The notes beneath the pieces are model-generated. The model was not told the origin of the DNA, searched no databases, and was given only the letters and a program-made list of their open reading frames with translations. Shown here piece after piece: positions 462 through 58,093 of a stretch of 64,000 bases of DNA. The position numbers were made by a program, and so were the translations under genes. The DNA lies in the NCBI GenBank assembly GCA_964485795.1, contig CAZAJQ010000005.1, positions 4,678 through 68,677 on the forward strand, written 5' to 3'. Numbering within the stretch: the first letter of the stretch is position 1; every line of letters starts with the position of its first letter. This DNA is from an uncultured Gammaproteobacteria bacterium (GTDB lineage Bacteria > Patescibacteriota > Patescibacteriia > VMEV01 > CAZAJQ01).

Positions 462-526
462 GTGATAACAATGAAATGCGTCAGAAATTTTTTTCCATCA
501 TTTTTTTTAAAAAATCCTCGCCGCGC

Positions 527-3667: not shown

Positions 3668-3895
3668 ATGGGAAACGATGGAAAGAAAAAAAGGGTCGTG
3701 AAGTCCGGCGAGGGAAGAAAAAAATGGACACGAACAAAGTCCAATCAGTCGTCAAAGGCTCCCCTCAAATGCCCCTCTCACGCTGATGAATCGTTTGAAA
3801 GTGATGATGACTACACACCAAGGCAGAAATTTGCATCAAGCGACAGCGGCAAAATCTGCTGGTTATCAAAATTTTCAGACCAATTTTACGACTAG
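3668..3895 (+). CDS. Small basic protein (75 aa), candidate gene
   Basis: AAAGGAG Shine-Dalgarno 7 nt upstream of the ATG. Lys/Arg-rich N-terminus (GKKKRVVKSGEGRKKWTRTK). Followed by a canonical intrinsic terminator hairpin plus T-run. Confidence 0.4.
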   Translation: MGNDGKKKRVVKSGEGRKKWTRTKSNQSSKAPLKCPSHADESFESDDDYTPRQKFASSDSGKICWLSKFSDQFYD

Positions 3896-5402: not shown

Positions 5403-5634
5403 ATCGAATTTTTCCATAGTATGGTACTCAAACCTAATATTCAACCTCACTTTTTCTCTTCGTATTTCGTTGCTTTAAACATGGAAAAAAATGAAGCTGC
5501 ACTGTTAAGTCAATTATTCATAAGGCATCAAGAAATAAAAGGATAATTTTTTTAAAAAAAAATGACTCACCGAGCGGATTGATTTTTCACCACTCTCACT
5601 CATTTTCGGTGAAAACATTGAAAAATTCCTGACA

Positions 5635-21727: not shown

Positions 21728-21822
21728 TGCCCGACCATCAAGCGGCGATTATTTTTTAAAAAAAATTGAAACAAAAAAATCAGCGAGTGTTCGGATTCGG
21801 TGATGAATAATTTTATTTATCT

Positions 21823-33200: not shown

Positions 33201-33257
33201 TTTTTTATTTTTACGATTCACCATAATATAAAAAAATATTCCGCGACATCCAGTCAC
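24246..33257 (-). CDS. Giant (3003 aa) multi-domain cell-surface protein. It has an N-terminal TM/signal and five Gly-rich parallel-beta-helix-like modules of about 255-380 aa. It also has four Asp-box (BNR, SxDxGxTW) repeats, two FN3-like domains and a DUF11 domain. Further along are a Pro/Glu-rich linker, an Ig-like domain, and two CarboxypepD_reg/transthyretin-like domains separated by clusters of internal TM helices.
   Basis: Single uninterrupted ORF. Motifs read from the translation: GSHGG.G...YD.IDDP.YPGSGS repeated five times; STDSGVTW / STNGGSTW / STDNGSSW / SLDGGTTF; TVTNxG-type DUF11 segment VIPGDTIVYQIQYKNVGSAKATGVVITNPI; YRLEVQKQGYAGIS and YQLQVKKTGYEPLS beta-sandwich motifs. Hydrophobic stretches appear at roughly residues 2040-2060, 2630-2680 and 2790-2860. 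The alternative start Met is at 33224. Confidence 0.8.
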   Translation of the reverse strand: MTGCRGIFFYIMVNRKNKKRDFKKILKTFTLGCIMVGGFFVLSRMDASRSVFEAAAFFGETYLPLEREGLQGKVMGIFENLLNEGEHVSFFEESGEKKRDFHIAAIQTLDAAWKTANCAAVECTVTPGTFAGDDIVIDGITVNMTGDFTGANGFASLTLQNAAILTHTISDSSTTYKKMDIVLTGNLTVNAGTFIDANGKGCPASKRFNKTTFICSELADAQGSHGGAGNDVGIADIEDRVYDFIDNPLYPGSGASDATAGGGVIRISAGGNMVVNGTIRANRGSGNAAGGAIKLVATGSFTGTGTVEARTDTGTGGGGRIFIQGTTDNSLTTLNAFSWSAGAAKIGTGGGTVFLRNTTSDTNSITYHSGLAVGSLLIKSSMFATINPNTVNLSISFGHVNLEGAITFKNVTMIDTGGANNSLTHLPSTATVTRKMDLTVVQTLTVNTNGTVTGDGRGCPIGARFNPDSGDLKCSLAADSEGSHGGVGVSITEANALSRIYDYIDDPQYPGSGSATSAGDGVIKITAANIVASGTIRAGTGSGSGAGGSIKLIVSGTLSGAGEITVRTAASGTGGAGRLYIEAATITHTGLRTAYANMNPGGGGGSVLVRNTTASTYTMDMHTGNGNAYATYTPSMFSALNSNLVDLNINFGIIKLPSAITFKTVHVVSSGGFSKLSHFASTATQTNKLDLTVVNDLTVDSGEFIDANGLGCPSTTRFNPSSAGGDNKCSLAADSEGSHGGVGVSITEANALSRIYDYIDDPQYPGSGSATSAGDGVIKITAANIVASGTIRAGTGSGSGAGGSIKLIVSGTLSGAGEITVRTAASGTGGAGRLYIEAATITHTGLRTAYANMNPGGGGGSVLVRNTTASTYTMDMHTGNGNAYATYTPSMFSALNSNLVDLNINFGIIKLPSAITFKTVHVVSSGGFSKLSHFASTATQTNKLDLTVVNDLTVDSGEFIDANGLGCPGATRFNPSLSDLKCSLAADTYGSHGAAGHSVATADIIDRTYDFIDDPSYPGSGSAAGAAGGGVIRISAGGNIVVNGTIRANRGSGDAAGGAIKLVATGSFTGTGTVEARTDTGGGGGGRIFIQGTTDNALTTLNAFSWSSGTDKAGTGGGTVLLRNTTTDTNSITYHSGLASGSIMIKSSMFATINPNTVNLAVSFGYVNLEGAITFKNVTINDPGGVGNNALTHLPSTSTVTRKLDLTVVNALTVNTNGLIDVNARGCPTARLNTANGLCDSVADTNGSHGGTGSGASGTRVYDSVENPTLPGSGGTSGNGGGIVNISATNITVSGGIRADGSGNGAGGTVKLLTSSGTITGAGTVTAGGAGNGGGGRVAIIYNAANTALGLTPSNITANGAGGGSAGTAYIDTIGSTLTSTSGTLGTTDITFNHRLFTEDTGFTNSYDITPEFSTDSGVTWTTATDGGGASEGKVGLTATAGTGTAHVFVWDASAQCSGCASALLRMRAKKNPIGDGFQIVLSGTGSGGVYATVTTPSGSQSGTIPISYTLSDVGSASTSINIEYSTNGGSTWSAATSAGGDSCRATSGSSVPCTISQTTTPNGTPSKTFQWASMTDAPNTDNSLIRIRVTPLNGGSVAGETGNFRVDNNNAPVATVTNLTSCGAVNGNITITYSLVDANSDSLSIVAQYSTDNGSSWNTATSGGGDGTSGLASSVAGVSHTFIWASATNLPSTVNSTMKFRITPSDALNGAGTAGTTNTFKLNNNNPASATITTPTSASGSSVVMNYKLIDTVVGTANITPKYSLDGGTTFVSPLTEDTAATSPASQGVTSLSTALTPGADHVYVWNTGVDFTSSQQNLIFAIEPNDGNIGVCGQTSSFNYTKGGSIPVVPSAPSGPVIGVPTPLSGSVIRWNFTDTASNETGFILEDANGNKVLDTLPNATSDLSFLEETGLKANTKYTRRVKSFNVVGSSSASNTATVYTLAEVPKGVQPIQVSDREIEIQVDGVIDVSQAQAAGYTITADVEQITEGDVLKQVQDYRGQTAYFYEAVNTSNGNIQTSGWLQKSFYKFSNLTPNTVYEFRVKTRNGDGLETVYSFKLPVKTQQINPPRMVIALNVGVIPSQQSVVSAQLGQIPEAQAAEEVVDAQLSNARETVKRAKVSGYAFQKEWGKILFIILGMVLCGLLYGVLHSMRILIKNAGLLSGRRKYTWWQKMKLVMKFKKQIVTGNPVEVFESVAKRHKNGTFFSSFGVHRRHHRLVHAWVGIASVVVMAEGILGIMFLKQGTYAQQVYADNGEEVIPGDTIVYQIQYKNVGSAKATGVVITNPISSKVGYVSGSRVQDGQNVGDGGTTAGGASVWTIGNVNVNQIGYVEFKIQLPSNVGTPGILINQASVNYAEGFNTVFSNLVMNPLNPPLDPNNPNARRAGIAVTSKYFGITESGIERSVIPPSQLPISPLPTEPCKENCPPQPEVPSEEAPPTEEVPQERVIETPVGVDIVEAPKPQTVAEVPPEPVSPPSEEAGKKPGSEPGTQPGGEGPVGGYPQGQTTFENGGIGVGELPQDATAEEQALIEEGFSITGSIDAGSEGFTMSGTATPGSEVYVTFGEYGTFRVQSDENGNWKLYVPYDEIAITSEEAQKRKSVAVTAELRKGRLRSERVTLGNASLEGLVRWKEISIPEEQSLVQITAQEAVRILKESALAVKENIQKVEKPSQVALIAIAPVVTLLNPAIAANIPHIWAYLYHFISWLLSVLGIKKKKQPWGVVYDSITKEPVSLAIVRLYSVDTATPNAKPRLISTTVTDGQGRLGFLVKEGRYRLEVQKQGYAGISKLIPAGTRADAGYEDLYLGGALTLGREGVTIRVNIPIDPTDVKEEKLAMSVLGNIWYEMKAAIRKVSGPVLWIGLTGSVLLTYGSFNLTNTVILWLYVMFGLAQKVFSPKALRSWGVVYDAATRMPIALAVINIIDAEYGKLLKSRLTDYEGRYHFLPKAGKYQLQVKKTGYEPLSEAKALRSDHPVYKANQVLDIKKDEAIVNVDVAMKKQSVL
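30395..31924. repeat. Tandem duplication inside the giant gene: two copies with a 765-bp period, about 683 bp 100% identical
   Basis: Plus-strand shadow ORFs 30736..30987 and 31501..31752 are identical in sequence. 30430..30711 matches 31195..31476. Manual comparison shows identity from about 30395-31077 vs 31160-31842. The flanking modules are diverged paralogs. Confidence 0.8.
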
Positions 33258-40757: not shown

Positions 40758-40857
40758 AAAATGAAAACTTGCGTTATTTTTGAAAATATTGTATAGTTCG
40801 TACTCGTGTAATGATTGTTACTTAAAAAAAATTTCTTTTAAAAGAAGGGAGGCGGCA

Positions 40858-41190
40858 ATGGCAAAGAAAAAACCGAAAAAAAGTTTGAAAAAAAAGCTGA
40901 AACGCAAGTTTCAGCAGGTGCAAAAAAAGTGCGAAAGGTTGAAAAAAAAGATCATCGCTCAGCAGAAAACTCTTGTGAAACGCAACGCGAAAATACAAAA
41001 AAAATTTTCGCAGAATTTTTTTTCTCACCCGAAATTTCTCACTTCTTCAAGTTTGAAGATGAGGTACCGCGCTTACCGCGCTTTGCGGCGGCAGAAACTC
41101 GAGCTGCTTACGAAACTTGGGGAATACAAAACCCGGGAAGCATGTTACTTCCCGCGGGATATGGAAAATAGGACAAAGAAGGCCAAGTAA
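40858..41190 (+). CDS. Lysine/arginine-rich small protein, hypothetical
   Basis: Perfect SD AAGGGAGG 8 nt upstream of the ATG at 40858. The track's longer ORF from 40780 is rejected. Highly basic coiled-coil-like sequence. Confidence 0.5.
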   Translation: MAKKKPKKSLKKKLKRKFQQVQKKCERLKKKIIAQQKTLVKRNAKIQKKFSQNFFSHPKFLTSSSLKMRYRAYRALRRQKLELLTKLGEYKTREACYFPRDMENRTKKAK

Positions 41191-41233
41191 TCGTATCGCT
41201 TGGCTGAAACATTTTTTTTGAAAGGACTTTGAA

Positions 41234-41782
41234 ATGAAGAAGAAAAACACAGTAACTACCGATTCCGGAAAACATATTAAGCTTGATTTTACACGCGATC
41301 CGGAAAGTCTCAAAAAACAACAGGAGATTGAACAATTGGACATGGGTGATTTCATGGACACGGTTTTCGGAAAATCGACTCCCGATCTGGAACAAACCGC
41401 CACCGCTAAGATAAAATCGCCGGCGGCTGATGATCTGGGCAAAACGAAAACAGCTCGGAAAAAAAGAGCATATCCCACAAAAACCTATTCCGAAGGAAAT
41501 TCAAAAAAGCCAATGAAAAAGAAAATCACCTCCGAGCATGACGTATATAAAGAGCTCCATGGGGTGACTGTCAGCATTGTAACTCTTGAATCCAAAGAAA
41601 AGAAAATTGAATCCAATCTCAAAAAGCGAATCGAAAAAATTCGTAAAGAGATGGAAAAACAAATCTCAAAAGCAGAAAAAGAAGCCATGAAGGAGCTGAA
41701 CGGCCTAAAAACCAAGGCCGGAAAAACCAAAAAACAGCTGCTCGCCATGAAAGAGAAGCTGCAAAAAAAACTCAAAAAATAG
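41234..41782 (+). CDS. Lysine-rich coiled-coil protein, hypothetical
   Basis: 182 aa, KE-rich heptad-like C-terminal half. Followed by a terminator hairpin. Confidence 0.5.
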   Translation: MKKKNTVTTDSGKHIKLDFTRDPESLKKQQEIEQLDMGDFMDTVFGKSTPDLEQTATAKIKSPAADDLGKTKTARKKRAYPTKTYSEGNSKKPMKKKITSEHDVYKELHGVTVSIVTLESKEKKIESNLKKRIEKIRKEMEKQISKAEKEAMKELNGLKTKAGKTKKQLLAMKEKLQKKLKK

Positions 41783-41966: not shown

Positions 41967-42485
41967 ATGACATTTATTCTCTCCGCCCTCTACCTTGCCC
42001 TGCCGGCCTATATCGCCAATATGGCGCCGGTTCTTGCGAAAAAATGGAATCTGCCATTTGGCGCACCGATCTCAAGGAAATGGTTTGGCGCGTCAAAAAC
42101 CTATCGGGGATTCATATTCGGCATTATCGGTGCGATACTCATGGTTTTCTTGCAAAATCTCCTGCTCTCCGTCGATTTTTTTGAAAACCTTTCTCTCATC
42201 GATTATTCAAATAATACCATTTTTTTAGGCTTTCTCTTTGGCTTTGGCGCTTTATTCGGAGATCTGGTCAAATCTTTTTTCAAACGCAGACTGCATCGAC
42301 CTCCGGGATCGCCTTTCGTCCCCTTTGATCAGATGGACTTCATCATCGGCGCCCTGATTCTGATATACTGGTATCAGCCCATTCCCGATGAAATCATCAT
42401 CTTTCTGCTCATCATAACTCCTTTTTTGCATTTTATGGTCAACGTGGTAGGATATTTGCTCAAGATCAAGGATCGATGGTGGTGA
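41967..42485 (+). CDS. CDP-archaeol synthase (CarS)/DUF46-family CTP-transferase-like membrane protein
   Basis: 172 aa from the ATG at 41967. Motifs LPAYIANMAPVL, KTYRGF, FGDLVKSFFKRRL and FDQMDFIIGA resemble the CarS consensus (PAYIANG.PV, KTWRG, GDL.GSFIKRR, DQLDF). Confidence 0.6.
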   Translation: MTFILSALYLALPAYIANMAPVLAKKWNLPFGAPISRKWFGASKTYRGFIFGIIGAILMVFLQNLLLSVDFFENLSLIDYSNNTIFLGFLFGFGALFGDLVKSFFKRRLHRPPGSPFVPFDQMDFIIGALILIYWYQPIPDEIIIFLLIITPFLHFMVNVVGYLLKIKDRWW

Positions 42486-42610
42486 AAAAAAAGGTTCTCA
42501 GCAAAGAACGCCAAACGCAAGTTATAAATATCACCGGCGGGTATGCCCCTCGCATCTCTATAGGCGGCGGGATTGCCCGCCGAAGTTCGCACCTTTTGGG
42601 GCGAACATAG

Positions 42611-42685
42611 GCGGGTATCGTATAGTGGCTATTATGCTAGCCTTCCAAGCTGGAGAGGCGGGTTCGATTCCCGCTACCCGCTCCA
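42611..42685 (+). tRNA. tRNA-Gly (anticodon TCC), 3' CCA encoded
   Basis: GCGGGTATCGTATAGTGGCTATTATGCTAGCCTTCCAAGCTGGAGAGGCGGGTTCGATTCCCGCTACCCGCTCCA. Anticodon loop CTTCCAA. Confidence 0.8.
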
Positions 42686-42742
42686 AAGTTGTAAATTTCA
42701 GTTTTTATTTTCTTTTTTTCACTGTATCATGATTTGATCGAC

Positions 42743-42772
42743 AAAAAAATCTCGGCAATCCCGAGTTTTTTT
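42743..42772 (+). terminator. Intrinsic (bidirectional-looking) terminator after tRNA-Gly
   Basis: aaaaaaat-ctcggcaatcccgag-ttttttt. Confidence 0.55.
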
Positions 42773-42844
42773 GTTTCATACGTAACTTTGATGATTCTAT
42801 GATTCCTTCCAAACTCATTTTATACCATGATTTTCAAATTTTAC

Positions 42845-42872
42845 TTGACATTTCCAGCTGCTTTATTATATT
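42845..42872 (+). promoter_or_regulatory. Near-consensus sigma70 promoter
   Basis: TTGACA-N16-TATATT. About 85 nt upstream of the ATG at 42960, which has an AAAGGAG SD. Confidence 0.5.
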
Positions 42873-42959
42873 GTCACTCGAATCATCAATGTTTTTTTTA
42901 AAAAAAAGTTGTGAAATTCGGATTGTTCTTAAAATATTTTTTCTCAAAGGAGAAATGCC

Positions 42960-43652
42960 ATGAACGTAAAAATACTCGTACATGTGGGGATAAATATCCC
43001 ACCGACTGCAGAAATGGATCATCATTTTGCTGCTATTAAGTATAGATGGAAAAAAATACATACCGATTACAGAATCATGCAACTAGGAGGAGGAAATGTT
43101 CTCTATATGATTACCTGTACCATACAATCAAAAAATGTATGTTCAAATGTTACCCCAGCCGATCATGATATCGTGTATGACCTGAGCAATGAGCAAGTGA
43201 AGATGTTCCCAACCCCAATAGATATGGGGCAACTTAACAAACGGGCTCAGAAAGTTATAAAAAAACTCGATATCAAAACAGTGGGGCAGCTCTACTGCAG
43301 AGGAGAGTTTTATCTCTTGGAAACCCCTTATTGCGGCTTCGATACTGTATTACGGCTCAAATTCCTACTTGAAAAGTGTGATCTCGCCTTACCTTGGATG
43401 GTAACATCGATTCATAGAGGACTCTATCCCCCATTCGCACTTCTTCACCAAGAATTCAATCATGCAGAGCTTAGTTCTAGCGCACAAAAAAATCTTTCTC
43501 GATTAAAGATAAAAAATCTTGGGGATTATTTAATGCGTCCCCCTTCTTTATTTCTCAAGAATAGAAAACATGATGTAATCGATGAATTGGATCAGTATGT
43601 ATGGCGTTATGGACTCGGAAGAACTCCTAGAGAATATGAAATGGCACCTTGA
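42960..43652 (+). CDS. Hypothetical protein with two tandem RpoA-C-terminal-domain-like helix-hairpin-helix motifs. AT-rich, atypical codon usage.
   Basis: KRAQKVIKKLDIKTVGQLYCRGEFYLLETPYCGFDTVLRLKFLLEKCDL and SAQKNLSRLKIKNLGDYLMRPPSLFL resemble the alpha-CTD pattern R..N.L...GI.T.GDL.......LL..PN.G.KS. Uses ATA/TTA/AGA codons, unlike its neighbours. Confidence 0.55.
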   Translation: MNVKILVHVGINIPPTAEMDHHFAAIKYRWKKIHTDYRIMQLGGGNVLYMITCTIQSKNVCSNVTPADHDIVYDLSNEQVKMFPTPIDMGQLNKRAQKVIKKLDIKTVGQLYCRGEFYLLETPYCGFDTVLRLKFLLEKCDLALPWMVTSIHRGLYPPFALLHQEFNHAELSSSAQKNLSRLKIKNLGDYLMRPPSLFLKNRKHDVIDELDQYVWRYGLGRTPREYEMAP

Positions 43653-43690
43653 TGGAAAATAAAAAAGAATAACATTTACTTGAGATTCAT

Positions 43691-43724
43691 AAAAAAGGAA
43701 ATTCATAATAGTTTCCTTTTTTTT
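43691..43724 (+). terminator. Intrinsic terminator
   Basis: aaaaaaggaaa-ttcataatag-tttcctttttttt. Confidence 0.55.
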
Positions 43725-43852
43725 ATTACTCATGATCGATTCATGACAAAAAGCTCTTTCATCCGATTCTTTTTTTCTCACTCCTCTTCTATAATGATCG
43801 CAAGAATCAATACGCGCATTGATATTCTATTCATTCAAGCATTCCCATTCCT

Positions 43853-44794
43853 ATGCAAAACTTCAAGAAACCCCTTCTTCAATGGTTCCAAGAATTCGGA
43901 CGCCGTGAGCTTCCTTGGAGAAAAAAAGACATCACGCCTTATGAAGTCTGGGTCAGTGAAATCATGCTGCAGCAAACCCAAGTTTCTCGCGTCATAGGAT
44001 ATTATGACCGTTTCATAGAGCGATTCCCCGACATCTTTTCTCTCGCGAAAAGCGATTGGAGTGATTTTCTCCCTTATTATCAGGGGCTCGGCTACTATCG
44101 TCGAGGAAGAAACATGCTTGAAACCGCAAAAACACTCGTGGCAAATCATGGAGGAAAATTTCCAAAAAATAAGATACTCCTCTCAAAGCTTCCGGGCATC
44201 GGCGAATACACGGCCTGCGCCATTTTGAGCTTTGGGTACGGATTGCCGCATATCGCCTTTGACACGAATGTAAAAAAAGTCATTGCACGCTATCTGTATG
44301 GAACCAGGTTTGCAACTCTCGATAATGAAAGCGTTCAAAAAAAAATCGGCTCATCGGCTCCCTCCATCAATGCCGCCATCATGGACCTCGCAAATCTTGT
44401 TTGTATGGCGAAACCTCGCTGCGAGGATTGCCCCATACGCAGGCATTGCGAGTACAATCGTCAGCTCGGTATCAATGAAATAAGGCCAAAACCTCTCATC
44501 ACTCGAAAATTTCCCATGAAGAAGGCCCATGTATGCCTCTTTCTCCACGAAAATCACAAGAAATATTTCAGTAAAAATGATAAGAAATTTGAGCCTTTCA
44601 AGCTTCCCCCTTCAATGAATACCCGCGAGCGGCTCAAGCGGTATTTTCTCGAAACCTTCGGGCTGAATCTCTCCATCCGCCCCCCTCATAAAAAAATCCT
44701 TCTCCGAGGCCTCCCCACCCTTTTCATCAACGCTCAAATTCTTTCCGGGAACCATCATTTTTTTGAATATCCAGCAGGGGCTGTAAAAAAATAA
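43853..44794 (+). CDS. mutY: HhH-GPD superfamily adenine DNA glycosylase (MutY-like) with a 4Fe-4S cluster loop
   Basis: LLQWFQEFGRRELPWR, VWVSEIMLQQTQV, the HhH LPGIGEYTA, and the cluster Cys motif CMAKPRCEDCPIRRHC. The C-terminal region is divergent (no clear NUDIX-like domain). Confidence 0.7.
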   Translation: MQNFKKPLLQWFQEFGRRELPWRKKDITPYEVWVSEIMLQQTQVSRVIGYYDRFIERFPDIFSLAKSDWSDFLPYYQGLGYYRRGRNMLETAKTLVANHGGKFPKNKILLSKLPGIGEYTACAILSFGYGLPHIAFDTNVKKVIARYLYGTRFATLDNESVQKKIGSSAPSINAAIMDLANLVCMAKPRCEDCPIRRHCEYNRQLGINEIRPKPLITRKFPMKKAHVCLFLHENHKKYFSKNDKKFEPFKLPPSMNTRERLKRYFLETFGLNLSIRPPHKKILLRGLPTLFINAQILSGNHHFFEYPAGAVKK

Positions 44795-44912
44795 GCTGCC
44801 AATATTCTTTCTAATCTCATGGCGGCACTCATCATGACCTGAAAGTTATGATGAAGTTGCGTCAAATGGTGCGCTTTGAATCAAGTCGCTGGGTATAAAA
44901 TTCGTTTTATCA

Positions 44913-47513
44913 TTACACTTCCTTGTCTCTCTTCATCTTTTCCTTCCATTCATGCATCTTCTGGAGAGCCAAAAATGGAGTCATGTGTTCGACTTCAATG
45001 CATGAAAGCTCCTCGAGGACGGGATGAGAAGCGCGAACAACCGTATTCAGCGGAAGAGGAAGCTGCCCGACGGGCATTTTTTTTTGATCGCGCTCCAATT
45101 GTTTCAGAATACTTTTCGCTCGCTCGACAACTTTTTGCGACATGCCCGCAAGCTTGGCCACTTCGACGCCATAGCTCTTATCGATGCCTCCGGGAACCAC
45201 CTTGCGCAAAAAAAGAACGCCATCCTTGTCGTTTTCTTTCACGAGTACGCAATAATTTTTCACTGCGGATAAATCGTTTGAAACCGCCATAAGCTCATGA
45301 TAATGCGTCGCAAAAAGCACACGAGCCCGAATATCGTCGTGCAAATGCTCCATCAAAGCCCAAGCGATGGCAACCCCGTCATAGGTGCTCGTACCGCGCC
45401 CCACCTCATCCAAAATGATAAAGCTTTTATGGGTCGCCTGCGCCACAATGGCGGCGGCTTCCTGCATTTCGACCATAAAAGTGGATCTTCCGGATACCAG
45501 ATTATCCGAAGCTCCCACCCTCGTGAAAATACGATCAACCGGAGCGATTTCGGCGGTCGATGCCGGAACAAAGGCTCCCATATGAGCCATTAATACTATC
45601 AAGGCGTTTTGTCGCAAAAAACTTGATTTTCCCGCCATATTCGGCCCGGTGAGCAGCATGAGCCGGCAATCGTCATCCATGAGCAAATCATTGGGTATAT
45701 AGGCTTCTTTTTGCAAAGTTTCGATGACCGGATGCCTTCCGCCGACGATTCTCAAAGGCTTCCCCTCGTCCACGATCTTTGGCCGCACATAGGATCGCTC
45801 GCGGGCAAGGCAAGCGAAATCGGAAAGGACGTCGATTTCCGCTATCACGGAAGTCGTTTTTTGCATATTTCTCAGTGAAAGAGAAATTCTTTGTATCAAT
45901 GCATCAAAGATTTTGCTTTCCAAAGCGTACATCTTTTCTTCGGCTCCCAAAATTTTTTCTTCATATGCCTTGAGCTCGGGAGTGACGAATCTTTCGGCAT
46001 TCACCAAGGTTTGCTTGCGAATATAGTCTTTGGGCACATCCTTTGCGGCCGCTTTTGAAATTTCAATATAGTATCCGAAGACTTTATTAAACTTGATTTT
46101 CAAAGTCGAAATTTTGGTTCTTTCCACTTCTCTTTTTTTCATCTCCGAAAGGTAGGCCATGCCTCCGCGAGAAATGTTTCTCAATGCATCCAGCTCGGCG
46201 TCAAACCCGTCGGCAATGGCCCCCAATGAAGGCATCAGGGCCGGTGGTTCGGAATGCAACGTTTTTTCTATCATGGAAACGACGTCTTCGTGAAGAAAAA
46301 AATTTTCCAAAAGCGTCTTGGCTCTTTCGGATACGAAATTCGAAAGCAATGCGCGAAGCTCGGGCAATATCACAAGGCTGTGTTTGAGCGCTAGGATATC
46401 TCTGGGCGAAGCCCTTCTGCTGCCGATCTTGCCCATAAGCCTTTCCATATCCGAAATCTTTCTCAGCAGATCGCATGTTTCTTTTCGAACGTCACTTTTT
46501 TGCACCCATTCCTCCACCAGATCAAGTCGAGATTCGATTTCGTTTTTTGAAAGCAGGGGATGAAGCATCCATTGACGAAGCATTCTTCCTCCCATGGCAG
46601 TGCAGGTTTTATCAAGCGTTGAAATCAAGCTTCCCTCATAAGCGCCGGTCTGCGAAGTGAACAGCAATTCCAAGTTTCGAATCGTGGTCTCGTCAAGAAT
46701 CATGCCGCGATCAAAATTCGCCAAGCGCACCTGCGTGAGATGCGGTAAAGTCGTCTTTTGAGTTTCCACCAGATAAGAAAAAAGATGTATGGCGGCCAAA
46801 AGGCCTACGGGCACTTGATTGAATCCGTATTGACCGAAATCCGCGATATGAAAATGTCGCTGAAATGTTTCTTTCGGATCCGGCCAGCTGCCCGGCGCAT
46901 AGCTCTGAAAAGGAATGTTTTTTATGATTTCAATGGCCTCCGGATGCTTGGAAAGTCCTTCGGAAACGATCATTTCCGATGGTTGCATGAGAAATATTTG
47001 ATTTTTCAGAGTTTCAAAAGCGACGGTTTCGGCGATGCAAAATTCACCGGTGCTGAAGTCGGCCCAAGCCACTCCCCATGTGTTTTTTTCTCTGAGAAGA
47101 CTGACCAAATAGTGATTTTTCTTTCGTTCAAGGATTGCCTCTGAAAAAGTGGTGCCCGGGGTGATTATCCTTGTCACGGCGCGATCGACGATACCCTTTT
47201 GACTCGGATCCGAAACCTGTTCGCATATGGCGACCTTTTTTCCGGCGGCCGTAAGCTTGCTCACATAATTTTCGGCCGCATGATGGGGAACGCCGCACAT
47301 GGGGATCTCGTGTTCGGTGCCTCGATTTCGCGAAGTGAGGGTGATATTCAATATTTTTGACGCCAGCATAGCATCATCTCCGAACATCTCATAAAAATCG
47401 CCCAAGCGAAAAAAAAGGATGGCATTCTTGTGCTTTTTTTTTATTTCAAAATATTGGGCGAGCATGGGCGTCATATGCATGTGTGGAAACTTTTTTGTAT
47501 TAAAGTCCGCCAT
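44913..47513 (-). CDS. mutS: DNA mismatch repair protein MutS
   Basis: 866 aa. Mismatch-binding N-terminus TPMLAQYFEIKKKH...FFRLGDFYEMF, Walker A GPNMAGKSSFLRQ, and an ABC-signature-like STFMVEM. Confidence 0.9.
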   Translation of the reverse strand: MADFNTKKFPHMHMTPMLAQYFEIKKKHKNAILFFRLGDFYEMFGDDAMLASKILNITLTSRNRGTEHEIPMCGVPHHAAENYVSKLTAAGKKVAICEQVSDPSQKGIVDRAVTRIITPGTTFSEAILERKKNHYLVSLLREKNTWGVAWADFSTGEFCIAETVAFETLKNQIFLMQPSEMIVSEGLSKHPEAIEIIKNIPFQSYAPGSWPDPKETFQRHFHIADFGQYGFNQVPVGLLAAIHLFSYLVETQKTTLPHLTQVRLANFDRGMILDETTIRNLELLFTSQTGAYEGSLISTLDKTCTAMGGRMLRQWMLHPLLSKNEIESRLDLVEEWVQKSDVRKETCDLLRKISDMERLMGKIGSRRASPRDILALKHSLVILPELRALLSNFVSERAKTLLENFFLHEDVVSMIEKTLHSEPPALMPSLGAIADGFDAELDALRNISRGGMAYLSEMKKREVERTKISTLKIKFNKVFGYYIEISKAAAKDVPKDYIRKQTLVNAERFVTPELKAYEEKILGAEEKMYALESKIFDALIQRISLSLRNMQKTTSVIAEIDVLSDFACLARERSYVRPKIVDEGKPLRIVGGRHPVIETLQKEAYIPNDLLMDDDCRLMLLTGPNMAGKSSFLRQNALIVLMAHMGAFVPASTAEIAPVDRIFTRVGASDNLVSGRSTFMVEMQEAAAIVAQATHKSFIILDEVGRGTSTYDGVAIAWALMEHLHDDIRARVLFATHYHELMAVSNDLSAVKNYCVLVKENDKDGVLFLRKVVPGGIDKSYGVEVAKLAGMSQKVVERAKSILKQLERDQKKMPVGQLPLPLNTVVRASHPVLEELSCIEVEHMTPFLALQKMHEWKEKMKRDKEV

Positions 47514-47639
47514 CCCATCTCTTGAGGGTAGAGAGAAAACGGCAGACAGGTCAAATGGTCATGAAAAAGCCATACTCGAAAACATTGTTCGGAAGGAAGT
47601 TTCACGCTATAATATTGCCACCTTGCATGATTTTTCGCT

Positions 47640-48656
47640 ATGCCCGTAGATGAAATCGATCAGCGCATCATCACCACTTCCCCACTGCCGAGCGATTCGG
47701 ATGCTCCCGTTTCTTTGCGTCCGCAGCTGCTCGATGACTTCATCGGACAAGAAAAAAACAAAAAACAGCTATCCATATTCATACAAGCCGCCAAGCAAAG
47801 AAAGGAACCCATAGAACATACCTTGCTCTATGGCCCCCCGGGACTCGGGAAAACCACCTTGGCGCATATTCTTGCGAAGGAAATGAACGTGAATATCCGC
47901 ATCACGGCCGGACCCGCCATCGAAAAAAGCGGAGATCTGGCGGCGATCCTCACCAATCTTTCAGCGGGTGATATCCTCTTTATCGATGAAATCCATCGTC
48001 TCAATCGCATCATCGAGGAAATTCTCTACCCGGCCATGGAAGACTATGCTCTGGACATCATCATCGGCAAAGGGCCATCGGCGCGAACGCTTCGTCTGGA
48101 TTTGCCGAAGTTCACGCTGATCGGCGCCACCACCAAGGTCAGCTCGCTTTCCGCGCCTCTTCGCGACCGATTCGGAGCCACGATTCATTTTCAATTTTAT
48201 ACCCAAGACGAAATGGAAAAAATTGTCCGTCGTTCCGCAAAAATCATGGATATCGAGCTTGAACCCGACGCGGCCAAAGAAATATCATCCCGATCAAGAC
48301 GCACTCCGCGCATCGCAAACCGCATTTTGCGTCGCATACGCGATTTCGCACAAGTCAATGGAGATGGTATAATACGGCTTAACACGGCCGAGGAAGCCCT
48401 TGACATGCTTGAAATCGACGCAAGCGGCCTTGACGCCACGGATCGAAGCATCCTTTCCATCATCATCGAAAAATACAAAGGCGGTCCGGTGGGGCTCAAT
48501 ACTTTGGCGGCCGCAACCGGCGAAGAGCAAGAAACCATCGAAGACGTTTACGAACCGTACCTGATTCAAACCGGATTCCTCGAAAGAACCCCCCGCGGCA
48601 GAATGGCCACGATGAAATCCTACCAACATTTGGGACTCACCTTTCAACCCTTATGA
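47640..48656 (+). CDS. ruvB: Holliday junction branch migration helicase RuvB
   Basis: Walker [14 protein letters not shown], Walker [11 protein letters not shown], sensor residues, and a C-terminal winged helix. Confidence 0.9.
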
Positions 48657-48907
48657 CGACCTCCATTCTCCTCGTCCCCTATATCTTTTTTGTCGGAATC
48701 TTCGCCATTTTTTCCGGATTTTCGATATACCACATGATCAAATTTTCCTTGGTCAATAAAATGAGCTTTATCGCCACTTTTCTTTTTGTCACGATGACCA
48801 TCATCATTTTTCTGACCACATGGATATACGCAAGCACCGTTGACTGGACAAGGCCGCTTTTTGAATCCCAGCAATTCAGGTTTGACAATAAAGATTTGAG
48901 ATTCTAA
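48653..48907 (+). CDS. Small 2-TM membrane protein, hypothetical
   Basis: 84 aa; [19 protein letters not shown] and [20 protein letters not shown]. Overlaps the ruvB stop by 4 nt. Confidence 0.45.
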
Positions 48908-48931
48908 ACGCCGTCTCACAACCGCCCCCTT

Positions 48932-49513
48932 ATGTTCAGCATTGATCAGCTCCCCAATCCTCGCGAAGACGAAAAAATCGTCCTTTTTTTACGAAGGCAT
49001 ATTTTTGTTTTCATCGTGCAATGCTGTCTTTACGGCTTTCTCGCCATTATCCCTCTGCTCCTGTATTTTTTTTGGACGCAATTCATCGGACCGCTGGACG
49101 TGGCGCCAAATTTTTATGCCGTACTCGTGCTTTCGACGAGCATATATTACCTTTTCGTCTCGGTATTTTTGTATACGGCTTTTATGGACTACTTTCTGGA
49201 CGTCTGGATACTCACGAACAATCGCATCATCAGCATCGAACAAAAAGGACTTTTCTCAAGATTCATAGCCGAGCATGACCTCGATGTGGTGCAGGACGTA
49301 TCCGTGGAAATGCAAGGCATTCTTCCCACATTTTTGAAATACGGCGATATCCATATTCAGACCGCCGGCGCCACCCAGTATTTTATTTTTAAAGAAATTC
49401 CCTATCCGTTTGACGTATCCTCGACCGTCGGACGCGTGGTCAAGGAGTACAAAGAGAAAGTCCGCGGCATAACAAAAAAACCCGAGAGACTGGATGGCAC
49501 GGGTTTGCAATAA
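48932..49513 (+). CDS. bPH_2 (YdbT/DUF304-like) membrane-flanked PH-domain protein
   Basis: Two N-terminal TM helices followed by ...RIISIEQKGLFSRFIAEHDLDVVQDVSVEMQGILPTFLKYGDIHIQTAGA (bacterial PH fold pattern). Confidence 0.55.
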   Translation: MFSIDQLPNPREDEKIVLFLRRHIFVFIVQCCLYGFLAIIPLLLYFFWTQFIGPLDVAPNFYAVLVLSTSIYYLFVSVFLYTAFMDYFLDVWILTNNRIISIEQKGLFSRFIAEHDLDVVQDVSVEMQGILPTFLKYGDIHIQTAGATQYFIFKEIPYPFDVSSTVGRVVKEYKEKVRGITKKPERLDGTGLQ

Positions 49514-49532
49514 ACAGGAAAAAATCAAAAAA

Positions 49533-49562
49533 CAAAAAAACAGAGAACACTCTGTTTTTTAT
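49533..49562. terminator. Bidirectional intrinsic terminator between convergent genes
   Basis: aaaaaaa-cagagaacactctg-tttttt. Confidence 0.6.
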
Positions 49563-49603
49563 TATTCATCATAAAAACGAACCCAAAACGCCGTTTCAAT
49601 ATC

Positions 49604-52366
49604 CTATAAACGTATCATCGCCAGATCTCCCCAATTTTTCCCGACTTTGGGCTCCACGATCAGAGGCACGCGAAGCTTGTACACGTTTTCCATGATATGT
49701 TTCATCAGCGCCGCCACCGGAAGAATCTTGTCTTCCCGTACTTCAAAAACCAATTCATCGTGCACCTGAAGAAGCATGAAAAAATCGTCTTTTTCAATAC
49801 CTTCGGAATGCTTCATCCCCATCTGATATTCATGGATCGCAATCATGGCCATTTTTATGATGTCGGCATTCAATCCCTGAATCGGCATATTGATGGCCAT
49901 TCTTTCGGCCGCGGCGCGTATCATCGGCACTCCGGAGTCTATTTCCGGCAAATAACGAATGCGTCCCATTTCGGTCTTTATATACTTATGCTGATGCGCA
50001 AATTCCTTGGCCGCCTCCATATAGAGCGCCACCCGACTGTAAAGCTCAAAATACTTCTTGATGAATTGCTGCGCTTCCTGCCTCGCGATACCCGTGCGCT
50101 GCGCAAGCGATGTGGCGCCCATGCCGTAAATGACTCCGAAATTCACTTCTTTTGCGTTTGATCGCATCTCTTTTGTCACCTCGCCCGCGGCAACCCCAAA
50201 AATCTTGGCGGCCGTGGTGACATGTATGTCCCCGCCCTTCTCGTAAACCTCCATCATATTCTGATCCTGGGATATCGAGGCCACGATGCGAAGCTCGATC
50301 TGGGAATAGTCGGCGGACAGGACCCGGTATCCGGGTCTTGCGCAAAAAGCCTTTCGCACCTCGCGACCCAAGGCGGTTCTTATCGGGATATTCTGCAGAT
50401 TCGGATTGGACGATGAAAGCCTGCCCGTGGCGGCGACGGTTTGATTGAAACTCGTATGGACTCGATGCGTCACCGGATTGATAAGCCTTGGTAAGGCGAT
50501 GATATAGGTGGAAAGCAGCTTCGCCAGCTCTCTGGCTTCAAAAATGGGTTCGATGATTGGATGCCTGCCCTGCAGCTTATCCAGCTCGCTTGCGGCCGTG
50601 GAAAGCCCGGTTTTTATTTTTTTTATGCCCTTGTCCGAAATTTTCAGCCGATCAAAAAGCACTTCCTTGAGTTGCTGCGGGGAATGAATGTTGAAATCCT
50701 GCCCGGCCATCTCATGAATCTTTTTTTCCACTTCGGCAAGTCTTTCTTCCGCTTTTTTTCGGAGCATCTCCAAAACCTGCACGTCGAGCATGATGCCCCG
50801 TTTTTCCATGGAAAAAAGAACGGGTATGAGCGGAATCTCAAGGTTTTGAAAAAAATCGTAGAGTTTTTTTTCTTTCAAATCCGCGGAGAGTACGGAAAAT
50901 ATTTGTGAAATCACAAGAACCCTTTCCGCACCTGCCGCCATGCGTTCTTTCTCGTCTGAAACATCTTCAAAGATCGTTTCCGCTTCCATGATATCCCGCT
51001 TGGTCAAGCTCAATCCCAAAGACTTGAGCGTATGATTTCGACTGCCGGGGTTGAGAAGATACGAAGCGATCATGGTATCAAAATACGGTTTGCAAGGCAT
51101 TATTTTGCTTCCATCCAAAAAAGCCATCTGGCGCTTCATATCATGGCTCACTTTCAGAATATCCTGATCGTAAAATATTTCTCCGAAAAAAGTCATCCGT
51201 TCTTTTTTTATCATCACACTTTCATCCGAAACTCTCAGCGTCATACCCGATACTTCGGCTAAAAAGTCGGGAATGCCGCTCGCCGATATTTCAAAAAACA
51301 TTTTTCCTTCTTTCTTGATGCTTGAAATGATCGCTTTCAAATCTTTTTCATCGGAAATGACCCGGATCGGCGCTTCGTCCTTTTTTTGTGTGTGGTCAAT
51401 GTGAACGAAAAGGTCTCCTTGAGCGATGACGTTTTTTATGGACGGCTTTTTGGTTTCCGGCTCTGAAAGCGACGATGGGATCTTGTCCATCAAGGTGAGA
51501 AACTGATACTCGGAAAAAAGATCCACCAACGCTTTTTTGTCAAAATCACCGAATCGGCATGCTTCGATGTCAAAATCCAAAGGAACCCCTCGATCCATGG
51601 AAACGAGCTTCCGAGCCAAAAAGGCTTCATCCTTGTGTTTTTTCAAAAGTTCAAGGAATCGGGGTTTGATCACCGAAAGCACTGATGATTCGTCTCTTTC
51701 AACGGCTTCATAGAGGGCAGCCAAAGAACCGAAATGCGAAATGAGCTTGATGGCCGTCTTTTCTCCGATACCCGGAACGCCCGGGATATTGTCCGAAGGA
51801 TCTCCTTTGAGAGCTTTGAAATCGATGAGCTGTTCCGGCTTGAGGCCGTAACGCTCCATGACCTTGGCAATATCGTAAATCACGGTGTCGGAAATCCCTT
51901 TTCTCATGGTATACACTCTTGTCGAGTCATCCACGAGCTGCAATGCGTCCAGATCGCCGGTGAGAATCAAGCATTGCATTTCACGCTCGCGAACTGCTCG
52001 ATGTGAAACCAAAGTGCCGATAATATCATCCGCTTCGTATCCGGCCTTATCAAACGTTGGAACCTTGAGAGCTTTCAAAACTTTATAAATATAGGGTATC
52101 TGCTCATAGAGTTCATCGGGCTGTTTTTCGCGACCGGCTTTGTAGGCTTCGTATTCATCATGACGAAACGTCTTTTCCGCTCGGTCAAAAGCGGCGACAA
52201 TATGGGTGGGTCTCAATTCCCTGATAACCCGAAAAAGGATGAGCAAAAAACCATACACGGCATTGACCACCACCCCATCCTTGGTGGTCAATGGCGGCAA
52301 GGCATGCCATGCTCGGTGCAAAAGGGCATTGCCGTCGATCACGACCAGCACTTCTTTTTTCTTCAT
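49604..52366 (-). CDS. polA: DNA polymerase I
   Basis: 5'-3' exonuclease N-terminus (VIDGNALLHRAWHA), polymerase motifs A (LSADYSQIELRIVA), B (RSNAKEVNFGVIYG) and C (QVHDELVFEV). Start at the ATG at 52366 (MKKKEV). Confidence 0.9.
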   Translation of the reverse strand: MKKKEVLVVIDGNALLHRAWHALPPLTTKDGVVVNAVYGFLLILFRVIRELRPTHIVAAFDRAEKTFRHDEYEAYKAGREKQPDELYEQIPYIYKVLKALKVPTFDKAGYEADDIIGTLVSHRAVREREMQCLILTGDLDALQLVDDSTRVYTMRKGISDTVIYDIAKVMERYGLKPEQLIDFKALKGDPSDNIPGVPGIGEKTAIKLISHFGSLAALYEAVERDESSVLSVIKPRFLELLKKHKDEAFLARKLVSMDRGVPLDFDIEACRFGDFDKKALVDLFSEYQFLTLMDKIPSSLSEPETKKPSIKNVIAQGDLFVHIDHTQKKDEAPIRVISDEKDLKAIISSIKKEGKMFFEISASGIPDFLAEVSGMTLRVSDESVMIKKERMTFFGEIFYDQDILKVSHDMKRQMAFLDGSKIMPCKPYFDTMIASYLLNPGSRNHTLKSLGLSLTKRDIMEAETIFEDVSDEKERMAAGAERVLVISQIFSVLSADLKEKKLYDFFQNLEIPLIPVLFSMEKRGIMLDVQVLEMLRKKAEERLAEVEKKIHEMAGQDFNIHSPQQLKEVLFDRLKISDKGIKKIKTGLSTAASELDKLQGRHPIIEPIFEARELAKLLSTYIIALPRLINPVTHRVHTSFNQTVAATGRLSSSNPNLQNIPIRTALGREVRKAFCARPGYRVLSADYSQIELRIVASISQDQNMMEVYEKGGDIHVTTAAKIFGVAAGEVTKEMRSNAKEVNFGVIYGMGATSLAQRTGIARQEAQQFIKKYFELYSRVALYMEAAKEFAHQHKYIKTEMGRIRYLPEIDSGVPMIRAAAERMAINMPIQGLNADIIKMAMIAIHEYQMGMKHSEGIEKDDFFMLLQVHDELVFEVREDKILPVAALMKHIMENVYKLRVPLIVEPKVGKNWGDLAMIRL

Positions 52367-52602
52367 ATCAAAAATCAATGTCATCGGCTTTCAAAGAGAA
52401 AAAGGCCAATAATGAATAAAATCATTCGTATTGTAGCATGGGAAGACCGACGACGATAGAAGAGACGCTGCTTTCGTTTTCGACGATATCCTCCATCCAT
52501 ATTCACGGATCAAAACGCGATCCGCCCTCGATGAAAAACAAAAACACCCGCCATAATGACGGATGTTTTTGAAAAAGTCGAGGTTATTACGAATTGATGA
52601 TC

Positions 52603-53145
52603 TTATTTTACGACTTGGACGCGAACTCTTTTTCTCCCATAGGCCAAAGCATCGCTTTTATCTCCCATCCAGACGTCAATCACCTTGTGATAACGTCTAT
52701 TCATGCGATCTTCCACGATAAAAACCTGATCACCGAAAATATCGGGAAAACGGACCTTGGTTCCGAGAGGAAAATAATTGGAAGCCACGACACCGAAGCG
52801 AGTAAAAGTACCCGCAGCCGTAATATACGGACTTCCATCGGTTTGATTTGGAAGCGAGTTATAGGCGCTGGATTCCATGATATGCTGCCCCATCACACGA
52901 TACTCTCTTTCAAGAAACGCGGGTCTATCGCGTTTCGTGATCGGCGCATAAGCCGGCAAAATCAAACTTCTGCGCTTTTCCATCGATTGCCGTGATACCA
53001 ATCCCATACCGGATTCATTCACCTGCGAAGCCGCATAGACGAGCTGCCGCGGTGAAAAAAGCTCAAAAGCGATCACCGAAAGCACGGCTGACATTCGAAG
53101 AGTTTTTTGAAAACGTGAAAGGATATGACCGATGAGATATATCAT
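52603..53145 (-). CDS. 3D-domain protein (MltA/YuiC-like double-psi beta-barrel; probable peptidoglycan-active)
   Basis: Signal-like N-terminus. C-terminal NYFPLGTKVRFPDIFGDQVFIVEDRMNRRYHKVIDVWM with three conserved Asp, typical of the 3D domain. Confidence 0.5.
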   Translation of the reverse strand: MIYLIGHILSRFQKTLRMSAVLSVIAFELFSPRQLVYAASQVNESGMGLVSRQSMEKRRSLILPAYAPITKRDRPAFLEREYRVMGQHIMESSAYNSLPNQTDGSPYITAAGTFTRFGVVASNYFPLGTKVRFPDIFGDQVFIVEDRMNRRYHKVIDVWMGDKSDALAYGRKRVRVQVVK

Positions 53146-53271
53146 AGATGTGATATAAATAAAAAATCCGCATGATTTGCGAACTTTTTAATATATCACA
53201 AATTGATAATTTTGTCAATACATTCGACAATATTTTGGCTCTATGAAGCGAAAAAAATACAAACTTTCATC

Positions 53272-57916: not shown

Positions 57917-58093
57917 TCTGTTTTCCATTTTAAAATCTTCTTTAACACCCAAAAACATTGACATAACTCTATATTGGGTTATAATACGAAGTTCTTGATT
58001 GTTTCTTTTATTTTCTTTTTTTAAAAAAAGGAGCTGCAGCATGTCCCAAACCAATCAAAAAGTTGTCTTGATCATCACTCATGGCGAAAAAAT

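Follow-up and report, generated by a model that had tools for sequence, protein, structure and literature searches.

A divergent tandem alpha-CTD-like protein encoded 3' of tRNA-Gly(TCC) in an uncultured CPR bacterium

In the genome of an uncultured ultra-small bacterium (CPR/Patescibacteria) the gene following tRNA-Gly(TCC) encodes a 230-aa protein that, judged from sequence comparison, appears to lie at the far margin of a widespread class of uncharacterised, free-standing proteins with two tandem copies of the C-terminal domain of the RNA polymerase alpha subunit (alpha-CTD), and not RpoA. We regard it as probable, with reservations, that the gene is genuine, chromosomal and transcribed on its own, that it is a lineage-specific accessory gene, and that its product is a divergent tandem alpha-CTD protein which would serve as an accessory factor in transcription or in the nucleoid. 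It is classed as lineage-specific and accessory because of its low GC3, its atypical codons and its lack of relatives. The gene may be of recent or foreign origin, or may evolve fast.

Results

Composition of the locus

The window, i.e. the whole 64-kb stretch of DNA that was analysed, also contains genes for Wzy-like, TsaD, TsaE, CarS-like, MutY, MutS, RuvB and PolA proteins as neighbours, while its only Rfam matches are four tRNAs. Table 1 gives an overview of the features of the locus. A protein identical to the 230-aa protein occurs in NCBI, and an independent Logan assembly contains it too.

The initial annotation had described the 1.2 kb after the tRNA gene as markedly AT-rich. Indeed, positions 42686-43852 have a lower GC content than any other 1167-bp segment of the 64 kb (0.347; mean over the window 0.463, sd 0.038). 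This segment consists of two spacers (GC 0.277 and 0.295) and the coding sequence (GC 0.39), and the remaining spacers in the window are comparably AT-rich (GC 0.26-0.45). The deviation of the gene from its neighbours was likewise confirmed. Its GC3 is the lowest of 40 genes (0.516 ± 0.048 in the 39 others; z = -3.6), and all four codons for which a bias had been claimed are more common than in the other genes of the window: ATA accounts for 47% of the Ile codons (19% elsewhere), TTA for 19% and CTA for 7% of the Leu codons (4% and 1%), and AGA for 58% of the Arg codons (21%). Synonymous-codon likelihood is the second lowest among the 40 genes. The next lowest GC3 values belong to the genes at 2588-3412 and 58094-58846, both of which lack a Pfam match; thus, low GC3 tracks poorly characterised genes in the window generally. 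An NCBIfam domain match is present for the gene at 2588-3412.

Table 1 Features of the tRNA-Gly(TCC) locus (positions within the 64-kb window)
Feature	Position	Strand	Evidence
tRNA-Gly(TCC), CCA encoded	42611..42685	+	ARAGORN; Rfam RF00005, 59.6 bits
Hairpin, A-run / GC stem (42751-42765) / T-run	42740..42775		Terminator scan, both strands; folding
Sigma-70-type promoter TTGACA-N16-TATATT	42845..42872	+	11/12 consensus positions
T8A8 palindromic tract, predicted 5' leader	42892..42907		Longest among six intergenic tracts
SD AAAGGAG	42946..42952	+	Read from sequence; 7 nt 5' of ATG
CDS, 230 aa, pI 9.1, GC3 0.342	42960..43652	+	ORF call, composition
N-terminal region, aa 1-80, predicted beta-alpha-beta-beta rich	42960..43199	+	AF2 pLDDT only 46-76
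Alpha-CTD-like (HhH)2 domain 1, aa 85-146	43212..43397	+	PF03118, PDB, phmmer, profiles, AF2/Foldseek
Degenerate alpha-CTD-like domain 2, aa 161-219	43440..43616	+	Profiles, shuffles, tandem alignment, AF2
AT-rich hairpin AAAAAAGGAAA-N10-TTTCCTTTTTT then T-run, terminator of the gene	43691..43722		Folding; inverted repeat I17

Expression signals

The near-consensus promoter and the SD that had been proposed for the gene were both recovered. The promoter boxes lie at 42845-42850 (TTGACA) and 42867-42872 (TATATT), and the promoter is one of six sites in the window that match at least 11 of the 12 consensus positions, compared to 1.1 expected. Folding gave -14.7 kcal/mol (z -5.9) for the hairpin following the tRNA gene, which looks like a bidirectional intrinsic terminator ending the tRNA transcript, and -14.8 kcal/mol (z -3.7) for the hairpin behind the gene. 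The latter was overlooked by the consensus scanner because its stem has fewer than three G-C pairs. Together with the promoter and the SD, the two terminators bear out the earlier view of a bracketed, insulated single-gene expression unit.

The most intriguing by-product of the analysis is a genome-specific T(6-8)A(6-9) motif. Six intergenic copies are found in the window compared to 0.13 expected, and the motif is about 9 times as dense as in other loci, mostly of CPR bacteria, that total 493 kb. In three of the six cases a near-consensus promoter precedes the motif and an SD follows it. The longest copy is the T8A8 tract in the leader of the gene described here.

Domain architecture of the protein

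According to sequence matches and a predicted model, aa 85-146 are a bona fide but divergent alpha-CTD-like (HhH)2 domain. PF03118 was the sole Pfam family reported for the protein at E-values up to 10; it matched aa 85-123 in one stretch (E 0.0074) with 16.4 bits, which falls short of the gathering threshold of 23.8. All 17 weak matches of a PDB sequence search were RpoA alpha-CTDs. When 1.84 billion sequences were searched with phmmer, four significant matches were obtained (E 5e-6, 1.2e-4, 4.9e-4 and 6e-4), each of them a protein with 2 to 12 alpha-CTD repeats, and for the repeats of these relatives the E-values against the E. coli alpha-CTD are as low as 3e-18. With two custom profiles domain 1 scored 39.3 and 18.1 bits. 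AF2 yielded no usable fold from the single sequence (pLDDT 39.9). Supplied with a 76-sequence MSA, itself composed of alpha-CTD proteins, it predicted domain 1 with a pLDDT of 84-95. The top 50 Foldseek matches of this model in the PDB were without exception RNA polymerase alpha chains, and entries of isolated alpha-CTDs were matched over 62 residues with TM 0.75-0.85 and an rmsd of 1.4-1.8 Å. The HhH alpha-CTD fold assumed in the initial annotation is therefore also what MSA-based AF2 and Foldseek predict.

Compared to the alpha-CTD of RpoA (PDB 1LB2, 3K4G, 1COO), domain 1 shares the predicted (HhH)2 fold, with 31% identity and an rmsd of about 1.7 Å over the 62 residues. The DNA-binding 265 determinant of the E. 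coli alpha-CTD (R265, N268, C269, G296, K298 and S299) corresponds in the alignment to R95, K98, V99, G126, D128 and T129, i.e. two of the six positions are identical and one is conservatively replaced. In domain 1 the minor-groove Arg (R265) and the hairpin Gly (G296) are thus retained at the equivalent positions, whereas N268 and K298 are replaced.

The claim of two tandem motifs also stood, with a solid first domain and a weaker second one. Profiles and a predicted model suggest that aa 161-219 are a degenerate second alpha-CTD-like copy; support for it is modest. This domain carries Ser173 at the R265 position and K176 at the N268 position, and its second hairpin is two residues shorter and lacks the Gly, so that neither the Arg nor the Gly retained in domain 1 is present. 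Its profile scores were 8.0 bits for the first half and 10.4 bits for the whole domain, the latter with a profile built without the query. None of 2000 shuffles reached the profile score of domain 2, and a single one of 2000 reached the score of the internal repeat between residues 90-114 and 169-193. The tandem relatives align with the protein over both domains. AF2 gave a pLDDT of 84-94 for domain 2 in a model steered by the MSA of alpha-CTD proteins. Both domains are basic (pI 9.1 and 9.5). Since Lys and Asp replace N268 and K298 in domain 1, and Ser replaces R265 in domain 2, DNA binding is not assured.

For aa 1-80 no relative was found in 1.8 billion representatives, the PDB, Pfam, PHROGs and NCBIfam. 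As a whole, the protein is a singleton, matching itself alone among 5.8 billion cluster representatives.

Comparison with RpoA and with free-standing alpha-CTD proteins

RpoA itself was rejected as an identity of the protein. The N-terminal dimerisation and assembly domain of RpoA (PF01193/PF01000) gave no Pfam match at E up to 10, and the NCBIfam rpoA models scored 11.8-13.1 bits, over the CTD only, far under their cutoffs of 227.8-434. Unlike in RpoA, the CTD-like domain is doubled in one chain and is not joined to the alpha N-terminal assembly domain. No other alpha-CTD gene, and hence no rpoA, is present in the 64-kb window, and a search of CPR loci totalling about 470 kb was negative as well.

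According to a profile search, free-standing proteins with tandem alpha-CTDs make up at least 420 clusters. Among the matches listed (n = 120) lengths range from 150 to 271 aa, PF03118 is present and some proteins have TPR repeats; the five class members that were scanned contain two PF03118 stretches each. In the source databases the class is labelled 'RNA polymerase subunit alpha (C-terminal domain-containing protein)' or, for example in Phycisphaerae, 'DNA-directed RNA polymerase subunit alpha C-terminal domain-containing protein'. Two members that were looked up are encoded on chromosomal-looking contigs of 135-146 kb. With a family profile from which the query had been left out, the two domains of the 230-aa protein together scored 30.4 bits. 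Two tandem domains, a short linker, small size and the lack of the RpoA N-terminal domain are common to the class and the protein, and both domains align at 20-30% identity (about 25%). However, the near-invariant 'SVRSRNCL...NFG.TS' signature of the class is largely absent and most near-invariant columns of the class alignment are not kept. While class members reach about 150 bits with two PF03118 stretches, our protein reaches its 16.4 bits with one. Its domain 2 differs from the class by the 2-residue deletion and the missing Arg and Gly, its N-terminal module is unique and not a TPR, and it comes from another phylum (CPR).

BFVD contains small proteins of phages with the annotation 'RNA polymerase alpha subunit C-terminal' (A0A6J7WD60, A0A6J5M7I6), and a further one is known from Rhodococcus phage Finch (A0A2P1JY10). 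They have the free-standing fold in common with the 230-aa protein (Foldseek E 1.6e-3, rmsd 1.9 Å, 66 residues, 24% identity), but the similarity is not above that to cellular RpoA, and there is no sequence-level match to phage records, PHROG or IMG/VR. Thus, of the initial statement that stand-alone alpha-CTD proteins of phages and plasmids modulate host transcription, the existence of small phage proteins was verified, whereas no paper showing their action was found. The literature searched for free-standing, paralogous or phage alpha-CTD proteins likewise gave nothing relevant and no functional study.

Search for traces of integration

The 25-nt 3' end of the tRNA has no second copy in the 64-kb window, even with up to three mismatches allowed, so that the downstream att repeat which had been proposed as a check is missing. 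Direct repeats within 42400-44100 are just short chance-level matches, none of them relevant as an att site. Genes for integrases, recombinases or other functions of mobile elements are absent within about 5 kb, and the neighbours have housekeeping roles. Neither the 1167-bp DNA nor the protein matched anything in phages (50,697 records), plasmids (72,556) and IMG/VR; the protein had no significant match in PHROG (best E 0.26) or among the PADLOC defence models (best PglW, E 0.03). The closest homologue of the neighbouring MutY among 15 billion proteins (57% identity) lies in an unrelated neighbourhood. A search of GTDB species representatives with MutY found 27 loci; tRNAs were scanned for in 24 of them, and tRNA-Gly was never located beside mutY. 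Six JGI contigs with the same tRNA 3' half (40 nt) have no neighbours in common. None of the sampled genomes is closely related. Nothing about the place of the gene behind the tRNA points to site-specific integration.

Discussion

The unit had been interpreted as a horizontally acquired remnant at a tRNA 3' end. In its full form this explanation holds that the 1.2 kb are a decayed, tRNA-Gly-targeted integrative element of phage or plasmid origin whose cargo is an alpha-CTD mimic hijacking transcription. Like tRNA-targeted genomic islets, the unit directly follows the 3' end of a tRNA gene and is atypical in composition, being the most AT-rich segment of its length in the window, and the GC3 deviation with its rare ATA, TTA, AGA and CTA codons is what recent foreign origin would give. 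The singleton status of the protein and the fold-level match to small phage alpha-CTD proteins fit as well, and the Logan assembly breaks within tRNA-Gly, a break that k-mer repeats would also cause. In contrast to such islets, however, the unit consists of a single gene without att duplication, integrase or mobile relatives. The phage, plasmid, IMG/VR and PHROG searches were negative, the flanking spacers are ordinary in composition for intergenic DNA of this genome, and the nearest sequence relatives are chromosomal. We therefore found the remnant interpretation unsupported and consider an integrative element unlikely.

Still less probable is that the helical repeats belong to another HhH or SAM-like family (NusA AR1/AR2, RuvA domain II, ComEA, HhH of repair polymerases) and form a generic, non-specific DNA binder. 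HhH families do cross-match weakly, even genuine tandem alpha-CTD proteins give sub-threshold HHH_5, POLH-Rev1_HhH and SAM_EPH matches, and the PF03118 score is under the gathering cutoff. Nevertheless, no family other than PF03118 was reported by Pfam, the PDB sequence matches and the top 50 Foldseek matches were all RNA polymerase alpha and never NusA or RuvA, and all four significant library matches were multi-alpha-CTD proteins. NusA-AR and other HhH families were rejected on these grounds. A spurious ORF or decaying pseudogene in an AT-rich spacer would agree with the singleton status, the atypical codon usage with its second-lowest likelihood and an N-terminal third without relatives. 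Against this stand an intact frame of 230 codons with strong SD, promoter and terminator, significant homology across two domains and the GC1 > GC2 pattern of real genes. These expression signals and the two-domain homology, along with the same sequence in the independent Logan assembly, led us to reject this explanation, which we find hardly credible.

We therefore favour a genuine chromosomal gene for a divergent tandem alpha-CTD protein. The alpha-CTD is the hub of the polymerase for contacts to UP-element DNA and to activators. In the most plausible mechanism, domain 1 would touch A/T-rich DNA via the minor groove, or would bind to a molecule that the alpha-CTD of the polymerase itself has as a partner; domain 2 and the N-terminal module would mediate contacts with other proteins. 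Its role would then be that of an accessory factor in transcription or in the nucleoid rather than of a polymerase subunit. A bolder version, to which we give little credence, is that the protein is a single-chain mimic of the alpha-CTD pair of the polymerase and recognises UP-element-like T-tract/A-tract sites. The strong over-representation of the T(6-8)A(6-9) motif, with its longest copy in the leader of the gene, would fit this version. Such a mimic would bind the T/A tracts, autoregulate and modulate a small regulon, or would compete with the alpha-CTD of RNA polymerase. If true, it would open the large, unstudied free-standing alpha-CTD class to functional study for the first time.

As a singleton without conservation or context, the protein is of modest immediate value. 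The value of the analysis lies in flagging a wider, unstudied free-standing family and a T-tract/A-tract motif, and in correcting the reading of the locus as a tRNA island remnant. In terms of architecture, the finding adds a very divergent, strongly signalled tandem alpha-CTD protein with a new N-terminal module from a reduced CPR genome. Alpha-CTD proteins apart from RpoA could be competitors, decoys or adaptors at promoters.

Organisation of the locus

The gene for the 230-aa protein is located between tRNA-Gly(TCC) and mutY. The near-consensus promoter, the AAAGGAG Shine-Dalgarno sequence and the two flanking terminators proposed for it in the initial annotation were all found in place, and both hairpins are predicted to fold stably (see the table). 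Sites matching the promoter consensus at 11 or more of 12 positions are rare yet over-represented in the window (6 versus 1.1 expected) and mostly lie upstream of genes or tRNAs. Thus, the organism uses this consensus, which makes the promoter of the gene credible. A GC-rich, strongly structured element without Rfam match lies immediately 5′ of tRNA-Gly (42535-42606, + strand; two hairpins, -43.1 kcal/mol, z -3.8); it may serve to terminate the CarS-like gene or may be a structure of the tRNA precursor. The interval from tsaE to the CarS-like gene contains two neighbouring Lys-rich ORFs (40780-41782, + strand; 136 and 182 aa; GC 0.39-0.40) without family match.

Features of the locus and T(6-8)A(6-9) tracts of the window
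Feature	Position	Strand	Evidence or remark
tRNA-Gly(TCC)	42611-42685	+	ARAGORN, Rfam
A-run/GC-stem/T-run hairpin	stem 42751-42765	both (terminator)	terminator scan; -14.7 kcal/mol, z -5.9
Promoter TTGACA-N16-TATATT	42845-42872	+	11/12 consensus positions
T8A8 palindrome (tract)	42892-42907		within 80-nt leader
Shine-Dalgarno AAAGGAG	42946-42952	+	
ORF, 230 codons	42960-43652	+	
AT-rich hairpin + T-run	43691-43722		folding -14.8 kcal/mol, z -3.7
mutY start	43853		
Palindromic tract	501-514		
Palindromic tract	3631-3645		
Palindromic tract	5547-5562		
Palindromic tract	21752-21765		
Palindromic tract	58016-58029		

Sequence relationships of the protein

The protein is a singleton, which matched only itself among 5.8 billion cluster representatives. 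The self-match stems from one NCBI contig (82.4 kb) and one Logan contig, L001 from SRR12113383, an independent assembly that is 100% identical to positions 42658-53210 and whose end lies within the T-arm of tRNA-Gly. The contig may have broken there at a k-mer repeat, or possibly the junction is heterogeneous in the population. Four further matches (E 5e-6 to 6e-4) came from an exhaustive HMMER scan of 1.84 billion representatives; all of them are proteins of 2 to 12 repeats of the C-terminal domain of RNA polymerase alpha (alpha-CTD), aligning to residues ~71-146 of the query. The only Pfam match was the alpha-CTD family PF03118, with a sub-threshold score (E 0.0074; 16.4 bits, gathering score 23.8), and all 17 weak matches of a PDB sequence search were RpoA alpha-CTDs.

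A custom profile built from 18 alpha-CTD repeats and the E. coli domain scored 39.3 bits for residues 85-146 (domain 1) and 8.0 bits for residues 161-193. The C-terminal segment outscored 2000 of 2000 shuffles, and the internal repeat (90-114 versus 169-193) was equalled in a single one of 2000. Residues 78-230 aligned collinearly over both domains with the tandem regions of three matches, domain 2 showing a 2-residue deletion in the second hairpin. A query-free family profile gave 18.1 bits for domain 1 (aa 76-144) and 10.4 bits for a full-length domain 2 (aa 161-219), with a total of 30.4. The earlier assignment of two tandem alpha-CTD-like domains is right, domain 1 being firmly supported and domain 2 probable. 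The N-terminal 80 residues had no match in any resource searched.

Predicted structure and key residues

The single-sequence AF2 model reached a pLDDT of only 40. With a 76-sequence MSA, pLDDT was 84-95 in both domains and 46-76 in the N-terminal 80 residues. A Foldseek comparison with the PDB agreed with the alpha-CTD fold, as all top 50 matches were RNA polymerase alpha chains; entries of isolated alpha-CTDs aligned over 62 residues with TM 0.75-0.85 and an rmsd of 1.4-1.8 Å (identity to E. coli, 31%). Because the MSA itself consists of alpha-CTD proteins, the model indicates compatibility with this fold and is not independent proof of it.

Key residues were compared at positions R265, N268, G296, K298 and S299 of the established E. 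coli numbering. Domain 1 keeps R265 (R95) and G296 (G126) and has K98, D128 and T129 at the positions of N268, K298 and S299, respectively. In domain 2, R265 is lost (S173), N268 corresponds to K176, and the glycine is replaced by K203. Both domains are basic (pI 9.1 and 9.5). Domain 1 could still engage either an A/T minor groove or a partner of alpha-CTD, and domain 2 may serve as a module for structure or protein contacts.

Composition and genomic context

The segment 42686-43852 had been described as an AT-rich islet, and its GC content of 0.347 is indeed the lowest among all 1167-bp windows of the 64 kb (mean 0.463, sd 0.038). This is in part due to its two spacers (GC 0.277 and 0.295), whose composition is ordinary for the intergenic DNA of the genome (0.26-0.45). 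The coding sequence itself has a GC of 0.39 and a GC3 of 0.342, compared to 0.516 ± 0.048 in 39 other genes (z -3.6). All four codons reported as avoided by the neighbours are enriched in the gene: ATA (47% vs. 19%), TTA (19% vs. 4%), CTA (7% vs. 1%) and AGA (58% vs. 21%). The two genes with the next-lowest GC3, 2588-3412 and 58094-58846, lack a Pfam match, so that low GC3 in the window goes with poorly characterised accessory genes generally. The former (- strand, GC3 0.385) is located directly upstream of tRNA-Leu and encodes an XAC2610-related domain (NCBIfam NF047539, E 1.3e-16). An AAA_14/DUF4143 ATPase gene with below-average GC (1118-2242, - strand; GC 0.405) lies about 200 bp from tRNA-Leu(TAA) (2456-2541); its product shows a full-length match to PDC-S01, a candidate defence family of PADLOC (E 1.5e-148). 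A giant ORF of 3003 aa (24246-33257, - strand) differs from the rest of the window by a GC of 0.52 and an unusually high GC2 of 0.50.

Composition and the position at a tRNA 3′ end are the grounds for regarding the islet as a horizontally acquired remnant, and every specific island test run came out against this. The tRNA-Gly 3′ end, whose direct repeat would mark an att site, occurs only once in the window, also when three mismatches are allowed, and local repeats are short, chance-level matches. No integrase is present among the genes within ~5 kb (Wzy-like, TsaD, TsaE, the two Lys-rich ORFs, CarS-like, MutY, MutS, RuvB, PolA). Searches of 50,697 phage records, 72,556 plasmids and IMG/VR with the protein and the 1167-bp DNA gave no match, and PHROG and PADLOC gave noise-level matches only (E 0.26 and 0.03). 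Stand-alone alpha-CTD-like proteins do exist in phages: BFVD contains small phage proteins annotated as alpha-CTD, which match the AF2 model at fold level (E 1.6e-3). Nevertheless, their likeness to the protein is no better than that of cellular RpoA; no literature on their function was found.

The organism is a poorly sampled CPR/Patescibacteria bacterium, and the MAGs with homologues of the neighbouring genes are Moran-, Magasanik-, Peregrini- and Gracilibacteria. Among 15 billion proteins, MutY has a best homologue of 57% identity, and the neighbourhoods of the top MutY relatives are unrelated to that of the window. Of 27 species-representative loci found, 24 were scanned for tRNAs, and in none of these was tRNA-Gly beside mutY. 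Six JGI contigs carry the 3′ 40 nt of tRNA-Gly, one being identical over the whole 75 nt, and none of them carries any of the neighbouring genes of the window.

Palindromic T(6-8)A(6-9) tracts

The window has six T(6-8)A(6-9) tracts, all of them intergenic. Dinucleotide shuffles predict 0.11 such tracts and a third-order Markov model of the intergenic DNA 0.13, and none of 500 Markov simulations reached six. The intergenic DNA of the window contains no A6T6, the reverse order. Tracts are ~9-fold denser in the window than in other, mostly CPR, loci (493 kb). Between a sigma-70-like, near-consensus promoter and SD/ATG lie three of the six, including the longest of all, which is in the leader of the 230-aa gene. 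UP elements have a consensus layout of a T-tract followed by an A-tract, and this resemblance suggests, speculatively, a link of the tracts to an alpha-CTD-like binder.

At 57958-58119 (+ strand) a perfect TTGACA-N16-TATAAT promoter is followed by T7A7, GGAG and a 25-codon ORF (58042-58119). ORF 58094-58846 (- strand), which has a low GC3 and belongs to no family, is overlapped by it at the 3′ end. Either the 25-codon ORF represents a small gene or a leader peptide, or the minus-strand ORF is mis-called. At 3590-3700 (+ strand), inside a 667-bp "intergenic" gap, a promoter-like TTGACC-N16-TATCTT precedes T8A7, AAGGAG and an ATG at ~3674; an unlisted small plus-strand gene is likely here.

Relatives and likely role of the protein

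A profile search with the alignment of residues 78-230 recovered 420 clusters. Among the 120 listed, the proteins have 150-271 aa and carry PF03118, some with N-terminal TPR repeats; each of five relatives scanned with Pfam showed PF03118 in two stretches. Their source labels are RNA polymerase alpha (CTD-containing) proteins, e.g. of Phycisphaerae, and two relatives checked are on chromosomal-looking contigs of 135-146 kb. The gene is best described as a lineage-specific accessory gene, and its product as a very divergent free-standing tandem alpha-CTD protein whose architecture is new within this unstudied group. The protein is presumably an accessory DNA- or RNAP-associated factor.
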